The notes: a model not told the origin generated them from the letters alone. DNA of 64,000 nt from an uncultured bacterium (GCA_965371515.1 CBDUYR010000001.1:84266-148265), one strand, 5' to 3'; positions 3,978-14,821 are shown, numbered from the stretch's first letter. Program-made: numbers and translations.

Positions 3978-6900
3978 ATGAAAGCCCGCTCTCATTTCAG
4001 GCTGCTTGCCGTTGTGCTTCCCGCCCTGACAATCCTTGTGGCTGCGCAATCCGCCATGGCGCAATCGGGAAGGCTCAACGGCAGAGTGACGGAAGCAGAG
4101 ACAGGCAGTGCCCTTCCCTATGCCAACGTAGTGATCGTCGGCACAAACATGGGTGGAATGACCCTGACCGATGGGACGTTCACGATCGTCGGAGTTCCCG
4201 TCGGCACATATACCATCAAGGTAATGATGATGGGATTCAAGCCGGAAGAAGAGACCGGTGTCAGAGTCAATGCCAGCCAGACGACGAGGGTTGATTTCAA
4301 GCTTATAACGCAGATCGTGGGTAAGACGCAGGAGATCGTCGTCGAGGCCGAACAGGTCCAGATCGATGTGAGGAGCTCCGATGTCAAGCACAGGGTATCC
4401 AGGGACGAGCTCATGGAACTCCCCGTAGACGATGTCGTCGAGGCGATCGCGCTCAAGGGCGGCATCGTAAAGACCGGCGACGAACTGCACGTCCGTGGAG
4501 GGCGTGACAGTGAAGTCCAGTTCCAGATCGACGGTGTTCCGGTGGACGATCCTCTCGGAGGCGGGATGATCTCGGTAGGTATGCTGGGTACCAGCGACAG
4601 CGAAATCATCACCGGGGGAATGGACGCCGAGTACGGAAATGCGCAGTCGGCCATCGTGAACATCAGCACGAGAGAGGGCGGCCGGAGCTTCGAGGGACAG
4701 GTCAGGTACATGACTGACGATTTCGGCCGCAAGGACAAGACATATACCAACTATGACAGGTTCAGCCTCGGTTTCGGCGGACCTACCGGGGTCAGGAACA
4801 TCACGTTCTACGTCTCGGGCGAGTTCACCGCATCGGACGGTGAGAACTGGGCGATCTGGGACAGGAGCAATCATATGGCCGGTACGCCGATGTCGGACAT
4901 CATGAGCTTCGCGCAGAGGCAGTCCGAATCGTACAACGTCCAGGGTAAGCTCGCCTGGCAGGTCAAGCCGGGGATGAAGCTGATCGGCGAGGCGATCTAT
5001 TCGCACGCCCGCTCCCACGGATATCTCAACAACTGGAACATCGAGGGATACGTCCAGAAAGTATATAGATTTACGACACTGCGGGCCAGCCGTGAAAGCC
5101 TCGCCGACGATGCGAGGGCCTTCGGCCCGTACGTCTCGGTCTATCACGGCCCATGGATAGAGATGTCAGAGGCCGAGCTCGAAGCGATGAGGATCGATTA
5201 CTATCCCGGCACCCTTGAGGAGAGGCGCCGCACGATCTACCCGATCACGATCTTTACAAAGGTGCGCGATCCGAACAACCCGGAAGCCGGCGCTTTCATA
5301 ATCAGGTACGACAACTTCTTCGCGAGACTGGTGGAGAACATCTACGGCGAAGAGACCGAGATTATCTGGGAAGAGCAGGTCATCAACTCAGAGGGCCAGG
5401 CGGAAGTGCAGAACAAGGTCCTCTTCGAGGGATTCCAGAATCCCGACTCGAAGTTCAGTTATTTCAGGGATGATTCGAGCTTCGTCTACTTCAACTCGGC
5501 CGAACGGACCAATGTCGCTATCAGCAATAACCTCAACCTCAAGGTGGCGCTGAACCACAATATCAACGACAACGTGCTGTACACGATCAACCTCAGCCGT
5601 TCGCAGTTCGACAGGGAAGTGTCGGTCAAGGATCCCGTGACGGGTGAACTGAAAGACCCGCAGGAATTCCTCGTGGCCGGATTGCCGACGATCCTGCCCA
5701 GCGGAGTGTTCATGCTAAGCGGCGTGAGCAACGCGATGTGGTACAGTGATCCGGAATATCCATACTTCGTCGATGCGTACGATTACCCGTTTTACCAGGA
5801 CCGCAGCTCAGTCATATACACGGTGAAGGGAGACATCACGTCCCAGCAGTGGTACGGGCACGTGTTCAGGACCGGAGTGCAGTTCATATACAACGATCTC
5901 CAGGACCGGGCGATCAACCGCCCGGGCAGCGTGAGGCGTATGGAGGACGGCACCTACATGATCGGGACGAGCGCGAACGTATTCCATAACTTCAATCCCG
6001 AGGCATCCTTTTATGTACAGGACAAGTGGGAATACCAGGGTATGGTAGTCAATGCGGGGGTAAGGTTCGATTTCTTCTCGCCTGGAAACAACACCGAGAT
6101 CCTGATCAGCTCGGCGGAGATCGATCCCACCGTTGAAAAGTACAAATTCCAGATCAGCCCGCGCCTCGGCTTCGCGTTCCCGATCACCGACAAGGACAAG
6201 TTCCACTTCCATTACGGAAGGTTTACACAGTGGCCGAGCAGATCCTTCCTGTTCCGCACGCAGGACCTGGTCGCCGGGACCGGAACCCTCGGCAACCCCA
6301 ATCTCGACGAGGAGCTCACAGTTTCGTACCAGGCCGGTGTATCGCACCAGTTTACCGAAACGGTCGCGGCGAACTTCGTTGTGTTCAACAAGGATATCTA
6401 TGGACTGATCTCGTCGACCAGGGTAACCGACGAGGACCTCGGGATTCAGGGCTACCGCTATATCAACAGGACATATGCGAGCTCGCGGGGAATGGAGGTC
6501 GCGATCAACAAACGTCTCAGCCACCACATCGGAGGCGAGATCTCATATACATGGTCGTTCGCCGACGGCGTTGCCTCCGACGCTGACTTCGGCGTCACAG
6601 CCCAGGGGCTGTCCCACCTGCCGACACAGGAGATGCCCCTCGACTGGGATCAGCGCCACACGCTGAACGTCACCTTGAGGCTGCAGGACGAGAACAAATG
6701 GGGAGCCACGGTGGTCTACTCCTTTGGAAGCGGGCTGCCATGGACGCCTGTCGACAGGTTCGCCAGGCGCGCGGACCCACTGTGGGAGAACTCGATGAGG
6801 CTCGACGCGACGCACGTTATCAACATTCAGGGAAGAAAGAAGTTCAACATATACGGACAGGAGCTGACGCTGTTCTTCGAGGGCAGGAACCTGCTCAACG

Positions 6901-7121
6901 ATGATGTGCTCCTGCCATTCGGTACGGCTCCCTTCGCCAATCCCCTCATGGGCAATGCCAGGATGGACGGCGGCTCCTATCTCACCGAGACGGGGAATTT
7001 CGGAGGAGCGTACCTCCAGGACCTTGACGAGGACGGCATCGATGACTTCACGCCGGTGAACGATCCTACGATCTGGGCCAGGCACAGACAGTGGCGCATA
7101 GGCTTTGGGTTCGAGTTCTAG
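3978..7121 (+). CDS. TonB-dependent receptor with N-terminal carboxypeptidase-regulatory-like domain
   Basis: Signal peptide; GRVTEAETGSALPYANV domain; plug motifs HVRGGR, IDGVPV, GGMDAEYGNAQSAIVNI; SPRLG, GNPNL; C-terminal beta-signal IGFGFEF; SD AAGGAG. Confidence 0.92.
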   Translation: MKARSHFRLLAVVLPALTILVAAQSAMAQSGRLNGRVTEAETGSALPYANVVIVGTNMGGMTLTDGTFTIVGVPVGTYTIKVMMMGFKPEEETGVRVNASQTTRVDFKLITQIVGKTQEIVVEAEQVQIDVRSSDVKHRVSRDELMELPVDDVVEAIALKGGIVKTGDELHVRGGRDSEVQFQIDGVPVDDPLGGGMISVGMLGTSDSEIITGGMDAEYGNAQSAIVNISTREGGRSFEGQVRYMTDDFGRKDKTYTNYDRFSLGFGGPTGVRNITFYVSGEFTASDGENWAIWDRSNHMAGTPMSDIMSFAQRQSESYNVQGKLAWQVKPGMKLIGEAIYSHARSHGYLNNWNIEGYVQKVYRFTTLRASRESLADDARAFGPYVSVYHGPWIEMSEAELEAMRIDYYPGTLEERRRTIYPITIFTKVRDPNNPEAGAFIIRYDNFFARLVENIYGEETEIIWEEQVINSEGQAEVQNKVLFEGFQNPDSKFSYFRDDSSFVYFNSAERTNVAISNNLNLKVALNHNINDNVLYTINLSRSQFDREVSVKDPVTGELKDPQEFLVAGLPTILPSGVFMLSGVSNAMWYSDPEYPYFVDAYDYPFYQDRSSVIYTVKGDITSQQWYGHVFRTGVQFIYNDLQDRAINRPGSVRRMEDGTYMIGTSANVFHNFNPEASFYVQDKWEYQGMVVNAGVRFDFFSPGNNTEILISSAEIDPTVEKYKFQISPRLGFAFPITDKDKFHFHYGRFTQWPSRSFLFRTQDLVAGTGTLGNPNLDEELTVSYQAGVSHQFTETVAANFVVFNKDIYGLISSTRVTDEDLGIQGYRYINRTYASSRGMEVAINKRLSHHIGGEISYTWSFADGVASDADFGVTAQGLSHLPTQEMPLDWDQRHTLNVTLRLQDENKWGATVVYSFGSGLPWTPVDRFARRADPLWENSMRLDATHVINIQGRKKFNIYGQELTLFFEGRNLLNDDVLLPFGTAPFANPLMGNARMDGGSYLTETGNFGGAYLQDLDEDGIDDFTPVNDPTIWARHRQWRIGFGFEF

Positions 7122-7155
7122 GAAAATCTGTGGAGAGATACTGGAGGTCCTAACG

Positions 7156-13758: not shown

Positions 13759-14166
13759 TTGAAAATTACAAAGAAACAGGGTGTTCAGAATTCGATCCCG
13801 ACAGGGTCGATGGCCGATATCATCTTCCTCCTGTTGATCTTCTTCATGGTTACGACGATCTTCAAGATGGAAGAGGGACTTCCGATTTCCCTGCCGCGGG
13901 CCGAAACGGGCGCGGAACTCGATCGGGAAAAGCTCATGAATATCTGGGCCGACCGGTTCAGCAGGGTCAGCATCAACGACAAGCTGATACAGGTCGAGCA
14001 GATCGATGCCGTGGTATCGAAACGGTTCGAGGAGAACAGGAGCCTCATCGTTGCCTTCAACATCGACAGGCGGACGAAATACGACCTGGTCTCCCGCATA
14101 ATGGAGCAACTGAAGGAAGCAAACGCCGTAAACGTGACATTCGTCTCTATCAGCGAAGAAGATTAG
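13759..14166 (+). CDS. exbD: Biopolymer transporter ExbD/TolR family (second paralog)
   Basis: SMADIIFLLLIFFMV TM helix; TTG start after GAGGAG. Confidence 0.92.
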   Translation: MKITKKQGVQNSIPTGSMADIIFLLLIFFMVTTIFKMEEGLPISLPRAETGAELDREKLMNIWADRFSRVSINDKLIQVEQIDAVVSKRFEENRSLIVAFNIDRRTKYDLVSRIMEQLKEANAVNVTFVSISEED

Positions 14167-14188
14167 ATAATCGGAAAAGGGGGCCTTC

Positions 14189-14821
14189 GTGGCCGTTGTC
14201 GCTGTTGAAAACCAGAAATTCAAGGCGGGATACAACAAGTATCTGCGGAACTCGCTCTACGCGACGCTTGTTCTGCATTTTGTCGGCATTTACTTTTCGC
14301 CCCCCTTCGAATTCAAGCCTTATGTGTTGAAGGAACAGGAATTCATCGTGATCGATACGGCCGATGACTTCGAGCTTCCACCTCCTCCAAAGGAGATCGA
14401 TCAGCCCGTGGTCCCGATCGCTGCCGAAGAGGGTGAAGAAGTAGACGAGGATACCGAGATCGCCCCGACGAGTTTCGATCGCATCGAGAACCTTCCGCCT
14501 CCTCCTCCGCCCCCGTCCGAGTCGTCTTCGGAGTTCTACGCGTTCGACGAACCTCCCATGCTGATCAAGTACACCTCGCCGACATATCCTGCCCTGGCGA
14601 GACAGGCCGGCATCGAGGGTACAGTACTGCTGCGGGTAATAGTCGGAACGGACGGCAAGGTGGAGAGCGCCTCGGTCATCCAGTCCGATGTGACGCCGGC
14701 GATGGAGAAAGCGGCAATCGCAGCGGCAAGAAAGTTCATCTTCAAGCCCGCGAAGCAGAGGACGGTCCCGGTGAGGGCAAGCATGGCTGTTCCGATCAGA
14801 TTCAAGCTGCACGGTAGTTGA
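14189..14821 (+). CDS. tonB: Energy transducer TonB
   Basis: N-terminal TM helix with His, Pro-rich linker, YPALARQAGIEGTV C-terminal domain. Confidence 0.93.
   Translation: MAVVAVENQKFKAGYNKYLRNSLYATLVLHFVGIYFSPPFEFKPYVLKEQEFIVIDTADDFELPPPPKEIDQPVVPIAAEEGEEVDEDTEIAPTSFDRIENLPPPPPPPSESSSEFYAFDEPPMLIKYTSPTYPALARQAGIEGTVLLRVIVGTDGKVESASVIQSDVTPAMEKAAIAAARKFIFKPAKQRTVPVRASMAVPIRFKLHGS

Follow-up and report, generated by a model that had tools for sequence, protein, structure and literature searches.

To our knowledge, the known stable partners of TonB-dependent transporters (TBDTs) in Bacteroidota are lipoproteins, and SusD is a helical protein. The C-terminal domain (CTD) of PorZ, a type IX secretion system (T9SS) protein, is not of type A and not of type B, is not cleaved, and is retained by PorQ, the proposed collector of PorZ at the translocon (PMC10947112, PMC10202324). 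Type B cargos have a cognate barrel encoded directly downstream, and orphan cargos share one barrel (PMC12618676, PMC9143113). Here we describe a locus in a 64,000-nucleotide stretch of DNA from an uncultured bacterium (GCA_965371515.1 CBDUYR010000001.1:84266-148265), hereafter the window. Eight genes, all on the (+) strand at positions 3978-14821, encode a TBDT, a secreted CTD-bearing protein (the cargo), a PorV/PorQ-family outer-membrane barrel, a GWxTD-domain protein, ExbB, two ExbD proteins and TonB (Table 1). A preliminary description, made from the window alone, had reported this co-directional run, and all eight genes are present. It had also called the run tightly spaced; this holds for the first four genes, which are separated by 34, 33 and 41 nt, and within the closely packed Ton genes, but not for the 230-nt gap between the GWxTD gene and exbB.

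The first three genes are conserved as a unit, as the preliminary description had supposed. GTDB genomes were scanned with a DNA motif taken from the head of the cargo, the neighbouring genes lying outside the query. At least 122 stretches matched; the 80 with flanks form the sample, and 41 short loci were left out. The counts given here and below concern the flanked loci listed. The triad of TBDT, cargo and barrel is complete and in order in 28 of the 80, one of them with a frameshifted cargo, and also on a plasmid of Rhodothermus marinus. Six further loci are compatible with a triad and are cut by the end of the contig, ten are cut before the CTD, and four are fragments, short forms or a false hit. 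Orphan cargos account for 23 genes in 17 distinct loci (plus two overlapping duplicates), with two more broken or cut orphans, and 11 loci hold homologs with a type-A-like CTD. Whenever a TBDT precedes the cargo and the sequence continues, the barrel is always the next gene, and the reverse is also true. The median pairwise identity among 26 triads is 29-35%. Identities of the three genes correlate at 0.83-0.94, a result that is expected from shared descent and was therefore not used as evidence of co-evolution; a Fisher test based on provisional counts, which takes no account of phylogeny, was likewise given no weight. Record titles of the triads name Krumholzibacteriota, Eisenbacteria, Effluviviaceae, Ignavibacteria, Kapabacteria and WOR-3; a few triads are labelled Fibrobacteraceae or Binatia, and the tree groups these with Krumholzibacteriota, Eisenbacteria and other triad lineages. 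The majority of the named homologs of the window cargo and TBDT come from Ca. Krumholzibacteriota. Cargo homologs are also present in the complete genomes CP070727.1 and CP070631.1. A GWxTD gene follows the barrel in 23 of the 28 triads, Kapabacteria included, and its product may be an accessory component. Duplications within the module also occur: L033 has two barrels (5941-7995), and in L080 a second cargo follows the barrel (3218-9330).

A search of a plasmid collection found the same gene order on plasmid pRMAR01 of R. marinus DSM 4252 (NC_013502.1), where RMAR_RS14120/14115/14110 score 572, 326 and 275 bits on the TBDT, cargo and barrel profiles, respectively. This triad adjoins a type-A CTD protein, and no Ton, SprA or GWxTD genes are annotated on the plasmid, whose gene table is known to be incomplete. 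Elsewhere the plasmid abounds in defence genes (CRISPR systems of types III-A and I-U, Avs2, restriction and toxin-antitoxin genes). Two Bacteroidaceae plasmids carry PorV/PorQ-family genes, one of them (L123:14935-15852) near an amidase-like gene and an OPT transporter and the other in L124 near 14941; no cargo, TBDT or GWxTD relatives lie within 30 kb of these two barrel matches.

The barrel and cargo might serve only to display an adhesin or surface enzyme, with the TBDT merely co-regulated and neither physically nor functionally coupled to them. Orphan cargos do exist without a TBDT, and for type B adhesins a cognate barrel provides the display without any transporter (PMC9143113, PMC12618676). 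However, where the sequence allowed the comparison, cargo-barrel pairs without an upstream TBDT number 0, against 28 with it, and the order survives both at around 30% identity and on a plasmid. We consider such uncoupled display very improbable; the TBDT, cargo and barrel very probably form a functional unit.

The cargo model, computed from an alignment of 146 sequences, has a predicted local distance difference test (pLDDT) score of 90.3 and a predicted template-modelling (pTM) score of 0.87. The head resembles the N-terminal domains of glucodextranase, glucoamylase, GH116 and phosphorylases; on comparison with 1ulv and 1lf6 (VIA) it gives Z 20.1 and a root-mean-square deviation (rmsd) of 3.0, with 248 and 247 residues aligned. 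The helical catalytic barrel is absent from the cargo model. Acidic DxDxDG repeats and conserved Asp/Arg residues in the head may bind calcium or a ligand. The FN3-like domain that precedes the CTD weakly matches the Fn3-like structure 3mpc. The cargo combines two features of T9SS cargos, a signal peptide (recognized by eye) and an Ig-like beta-sandwich CTD. It had been described as a non-lipoprotein, and indeed no lipobox follows the h-region in the window cargo or in the triad N-termini inspected; the cargo has no SusD Pfam match, and its model is beta-rich. The cargos are 704-1557 aa long with several domains, and those of the window's clade have conserved cysteines. The family is unnamed and has 7444 representatives at E<=0.001, a count that includes type-A relatives and CTD-only matches. 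Atlas searches yielded unnamed or GWxTD clusters alone, and the clusters nearest to the family share no common Pfam family.

The C-terminus of the cargo had been called a T9SS/FlgD-like CTD. The Ig-like, T9SS-type fold is borne out by strands at model residues 699-800 and by a match to PorZ 5m11 (VIA; Z 12.3, rmsd 2.3, 94 residues aligned), but the subtype is PorZ-like and not type A, and the FlgD_ig model of Pfam is matched only below its cutoff. The CTD matches the PorZ C-terminus family model NF052228 at E 1e-7. A profile alignment to PorZ is weak (E 0.019); the cargo ends in ...GKFVVIR and PorZ in RFAVIR, both of the form FxVIR. The full-length PorZ model scores 28.3 on the cargo against a cutoff of 260, and only over the CTD part. 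Neither type A CTD model (TIGR04183, PF18962) matches the window CTD, and other triad cargos reach 17-23 bits on the type A model, the cutoff of which is 23. The type B models CHU_C and TIGR04131 do not match the window protein, and a single triad cargo has a sub-cutoff CHU_C match.

The barrel was correctly recognized as PorV-like in the preliminary description, as its PorV/PorQ-family score attests (Table 1), and a profile of 32 barrel paralogs retrieves the solved PorV structure 6h3i_F at E 1e-28. It does not reach the equivalog cutoff for PorV, for PorQ (74.5 vs 220) or for PorV2. None of 21 longer PorV-family proteins (P0391-P0411) is fused to cargo or TBDT domains, which is a weak negative. 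These 21 proteins are barrels with long C-terminal extensions (TPR, OmpA, SPOR), several of them from KSB1. The TBDT consists of a signal peptide, a CarboxypepD-like N-terminal extension, a TonB-box-like EIVVEA, a plug, and a barrel bearing a lineage-specific insert of ~140 aa. Its model (pLDDT 87.4) is a standard plugged TBDT barrel, with BtuB, FptA and Cir as the best structural matches (Z 37-39; for BtuB 1nqe, VIA gives Z 38.6, rmsd 2.5 and 527 residues aligned). The SusC/RagA-family model TIGR04056 scores 24.8 bits against a cutoff of 368, at the N-terminus only. For the barrel and the body of the TBDT, PDB searches with single sequences yielded no useful match.

The tail of the cargo, FN3 plus CTD, is tied to the module. 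FN3 and CTD sub-profiles, built from 15 triad rows, score at least 40 bits on 28/28 triad, 23/23 orphan and 0/11 type-A cargos; because of their origin the triad scores are partly circular, and independence is confined to the scores of orphan and type-A cargos. On the CTD sub-profile, triad and orphan cargos reach 85-138 bits, as against at most 20 bits for the type-A homologs. No triad-type TBDT or PorV stands beside the 11 type-A homologs, eight of which have at least 1 kb of sequence on both sides. Type-A rows fall in seven places on a quick tree, in which long branches were flagged; the tail thus seems to have been swapped repeatedly, the genomic context changing along with it. In the same tree, orphans group with the triad cargos of their own lineage. 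Three assemblies hold a core locus together with orphans (L040/L025, L015/L038 and L077/L068), and L036 has four tandem cargo paralogs. Orphan paralogs that carry the same FN3 plus CTD tail would be exchangeable heads sharing one barrel.

Orphan cargos often lie beside members of an unnamed family of 500-800 aa, whose N-termini are of the lipobox type wherever a start can be placed clearly (L002:12433-14793, L025:11959-14526 and 16342-19401, L038:693-2921 and 5600-8101, and also in L016, L043 and L070), which sometimes alternate with the cargo. Two copies occupy the GWxTD position on the opposite strand in L033 (2289-5822). The family has weak fn3/Ig matches only, and no homolog in the window.

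We assign a probability of about 0.5 to the reading that the module is a TonB importer with a surface partner, the cargo being exported via SprA, held uncleaved by its cognate barrel, and capturing ligand. The cargo would cross the inner membrane by Sec, fold in the periplasm, and leave through SprA, the translocon of the host T9SS, encoded elsewhere. The co-encoded barrel would then collect it and keep its uncleaved CTD, as PorQ does with PorZ. Beside the TBDT, the head might bind or trim a large ligand (a glycan, or a cell-wall or peptide fragment), a SusD-like job, and a general Ton motor would pull the plug for import. The cargo-barrel pair fits the logic of PorQ-PorZ and of type B cargos, which makes export by SprA and retention by the cognate barrel likely; the fixed upstream TBDT and the carbohydrate-enzyme fold of the head suggest that the tethered cargo captures ligand for import. 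Retention of the CTD by the barrel is, from gene order and precedent, probable, and a role of the head in import is somewhat favoured. That the cargo would act as a lid or partner of the TBDT is suggested by gene order and fold. The conserved gene order, the three folds, and the PorZ-like CTD subtype with its tie to the module come directly from the computations. A complex prediction joining the L020 TBDT barrel minus its plug (232-900) to the cargo FN3 plus CTD (436-712) scored 0.00 twice, with the controls unfolded, and carries no weight either way.

The likeness to PorQ-PorZ lies in the PorV/PorQ-family barrel and the PorZ-like CTD. In contrast to that pair, the cargo has a body made up of a beta-supersandwich and FN3, the barrel does not reach the PorQ cutoff, an upstream TBDT gene is a fixed feature, and the paralogs are expanded. 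With type B cargos and their PorP/SprF shuttles in F. johnsoniae the locus shares a cognate barrel gene directly downstream, and its orphans may share a barrel (PMC12618676), whereas its CTD has no CHU_C match, its barrel is PorV/PorQ-like, and a TBDT is part of the unit. As in SusCD, RagAB and BtuBG, the gene directly after a TBDT with a CarboxypepD-like extension encodes a large secreted partner. However, this partner is beta-rich and has no lipobox, the score of the TBDT lies far under the SusC cutoff, a third gene encodes a barrel that is the likely anchor, and no cluster of carbohydrate-active enzymes is nearby. The module falls outside SusCD, outside type A and type B cargo, and outside PorQ-PorZ orthology, and probably works like PorQ-PorZ joined to SusCD.

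SprA is implied in Rhodothermota, Ignavibacteriota, Gemmatimonadota and Calditrichota, since Chlorobiota is named as the phylum of the Fibrobacteres-Chlorobi-Bacteroidetes (FCB) group without it, and the other phyla sampled are thereby implied to have it (PMC12611786). An FCB operon joins SprA to TonB-C proteins (PMC12419801). In the literature searched we found no statement on whether Krumholzibacteriota or R. marinus have SprA and Gld proteins. The absence of a SusD-like lipoprotein and of gld and spr genes, asserted earlier for the window, still stands: no SusD, Gld or Spr family was found among the 54 window open reading frames (ORFs) scanned with Pfam (V-ATPase ORFs at 1-3513 by eye only). 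The 10-kb flanks of the other loci likewise yielded neither SprA nor GldKLMN.

Several observations weigh against an importer with a barrel-held partner. The cargo often stands without a TBDT, as at the orphan loci, and in L014 it directly follows V-ATPase genes with no TBDT between. The N-domain works in type-A proteins outside the module, and so does not need the TBDT. The scan motif matches only 13 of 55 triad-type representatives, so that relatives without the motif were missed. The 99 further neighbours scanned vary (they include peptide and sugar ABC transporters, glycolysis, lipid A genes and DUF6754) and show no polysaccharide-utilisation context, with one GH2, no cluster like a polysaccharide-utilisation locus, and no SprA or Gld among them. 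Its conserved location, next to genes for Ton, TolC-ABC and lipid A, would fit an envelope role equally well.

Such a role would make the module an envelope or T9SS accessory, in which the cargo-barrel pair corresponds to PorZ-PorQ and the TBDT to PorF, and a surface glycan or lipopolysaccharide-like molecule is handled for attachment or recycling and not for feeding. The PorZ-like CTD is consistent with this, as are a lipid A acyltransferase gene after GWxTD in L041, L047 and L063, a GT9 heptosyltransferase gene in L041 and L063, and TolC after the Ton genes in 10 of the 28 triads. Normal T9SS output requires the TBDT PorF (PG0534) (PMC5445135, PMC12704123), and in C. hutchinsonii a TBDT resembling PorF was purified along with PorV (PMC8564354). 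The likeness to PorF would be one of role; the available parts of these papers report no cargo-barrel operon for PorF. The cargo lacks the PorZ body, only the 94 CTD residues aligning, and no PorU-like sortase was found among the neighbours scanned. The plasmid copy and the tandem paralogs of L036 resemble adaptable substrate capture, not housekeeping. We judge the envelope role, although the main rival, rather unlikely.

Some genes recur upstream of the TBDT. An EB_dh-domain protein is encoded there in L003 (1328-6348), L010 and L077, and the L003 upstream region also has a FadL barrel of BamG-like type and one more outer-membrane protein. In three distant loci the upstream genes include a DUF6754 cluster: L020 (2756-3889), L029 (17082-18017) and L033 (16469-17680). 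Wall-peptide genes are found just after the barrel in L029 (amidase, racemase and enolase-family) and in L122 (PGRP-family and serine hydrolase). The window itself has, at 22364-26795, genes for an Opp-type ABC transporter and, after it, an SH3-NlpC/P60 peptidase, which make up a set for scavenging cell-wall peptides. A peptidoglycan-scavenging role was considered on these grounds but set aside, as it rests on ~3/29 loci (L029, L122 and the window).

The Ton motor had been described as dedicated to the complex, a view that we reject. Ton genes come next in 13 of the 24 triad loci whose next genes are visible, other genes taking their place in 11, and none is annotated on the R. marinus triad plasmid. 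All Ton-linked triads lie in the Krumholzibacteriota-Eisenbacteria part of the tree. The motor is thus a lineage-specific neighbour, and is probably the general motor of the cell.

This linkage bears on the possibility that the TBDT and Ton motor export the CTD cargo, either in the manner of Oar and PopC or by energising extraction in place of GldLM, with the barrel receiving the cargo and the orphans being further substrates. Oar of Myxococcus xanthus, which supports PopC secretion, shares the PF13620 extension and has its own exbB/exbD1/exbD2/tonB set (PMC6434023), and the window matches it in the extension, TonB box, plug and barrel; a linked exbB/exbD/exbD/tonB set is there in the window but, as counted above, in only part of the triads. 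In three assemblies a single TBDT/barrel locus is accompanied by several cargos, no sprA or gld was found in the window ORFs or neighbours scanned, and complete T9SS models were found only in Bacteroidetes (PMC4793230). However, the cargo is larger than PopC and multi-domain, with a T9SS-type CTD and a cognate barrel, and linkage to Ton genes is patchy. The barrel of the TBDT is of the ordinary plugged kind, and such lumens of 35-40 Å (PMC6434023) are a poor fit for the multidomain cargos, including those with conserved cysteines. The copy on the plasmid lacks annotated Ton genes and adjoins a type-A CTD protein that needs the host T9SS, and SprA is implied in the FCB phyla sampled save Chlorobiota, Krumholzibacteriota being outside that sample (PMC12611786). 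We regard Ton-powered export as quite improbable. The same low standing applies to the form in which the module, in FCB-related phyla lacking GldLM, would be a second CTD-export route, TBDT and Ton exporting or extracting PorZ-type CTD proteins, the barrel receiving them, and the orphans serving as substrates.

Judged by the search listings, no description of a TBDT-cargo-barrel unit was found in the open literature (subscription papers were outside the search), and the term GWxTD gave irrelevant papers only. Each part is of a known class and both halves of the proposed mechanism have precedent, which makes the module a hybrid of a cognate-barrel anchor and a transporter-partner pair; providing a transporter with a surface partner by such means, with no lipid anchor, is apparently undescribed. 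If the importer reading is true, a T9SS-delivered, barrel-held partner would join two machines that have been studied apart, would add to type A-PorV and type B-PorP a third class of CTD and shuttle, and would give a role to the large unnamed cargo family. The orphan paralogs suggest swappable heads on one transporter. Through the R. marinus plasmid copy a cultured host, a harmless thermophile, makes the question testable, and the answer bears on CTD export outside Bacteroidota and on PorF function. Ton-powered export, if true, would represent a Ton-powered relative of the T9SS, possibly an older form, and could explain the persistence of PorF as a T9SS component.

Table 1. Features of the TBDT-cargo-barrel locus and adjoining genes, with positions in the window
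Feature	Position	Strand	Evidence or remark
Sigma-70-like promoter site, TTGACA-17-TATATT	3821..3849	+	Upstream of TBDT; 11/12 consensus, consensus match only
TonB-dependent transporter	3978..7121	+	PF00593 81.8 bits, PF13620 65 bits
Secreted non-lipoprotein cargo, 827 aa	7156..9639	+	ATG at 7156, GGAGG upstream; signal peptide by eye, ending ASA
Cargo N-domain, beta-supersandwich	7288..8400 (approximate)	+	Structure match, DSSP, invariant columns
Cargo FN3-like domain with insertions	8683..9300 (approximate)	+	Sub-profile; triad-type cargo only
PorZ-like CTD (VVPNP...FxNLP...WxLxSRNGQ...GKFVVIR)	9316..9636	+	NF052228, structure, profile alignment
PorV/PorQ-family outer-membrane barrel	9673..10617	+	ORF opens at 9640, likely start 9673; NF033709 187.6 vs cutoff 90
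GWxTD-domain protein with signal peptide	10659..12170	+	TIGR04514 58.6 vs cutoff 28; motif degenerate (ALSIRG)
Sigma-70-like promoter site before exbB	12212..12240	+	10/12 consensus, in 230-nt gap
ExbB/TolQ-family proton channel	12401..13315	+	PF01618 107 bits
ExbD 1	13336..13743	+	PF02472 83 bits
ExbD 2	13759..14166	+	PF02472 74 bits
TonB	14189..14821	+	PF03544 76 bits
Intrinsic-terminator-like hairpin after tonB	14845..14870	+	9-pair stem, T tail

The gap before exbB holds the promoter-like site TTGACA-17-TATTTT. Seven promoter-like sites were found, compared with 5.8 +/- 2.3 in shuffled sequences, which is the chance level, and this site is therefore suggestive solely through its intergenic position. 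A G+C-rich 7-bp hairpin without a T tail lies at 10633-10652, between the barrel and GWxTD genes, and is possibly a processing or stability element.

Downstream of the Ton genes, the region at 14983-22356 encodes TolC, an ABC ATPase, an adaptor, two MacB/FtsX permeases and a second GWxTD protein. The latter has the canonical motif, and a second GWxTD gene is shared by L072. A porin-like protein at 27200-28459 has a sub-cutoff PopA-family match and no Pfam family. The end of the window (62001-64000) has a G+C content of 0.44, compared with around 0.58 elsewhere, and the ORF at 62743-63993, which matches Pfam DERM (dermatopontin) above cutoff at 130 bits, is possibly an acquired gene.

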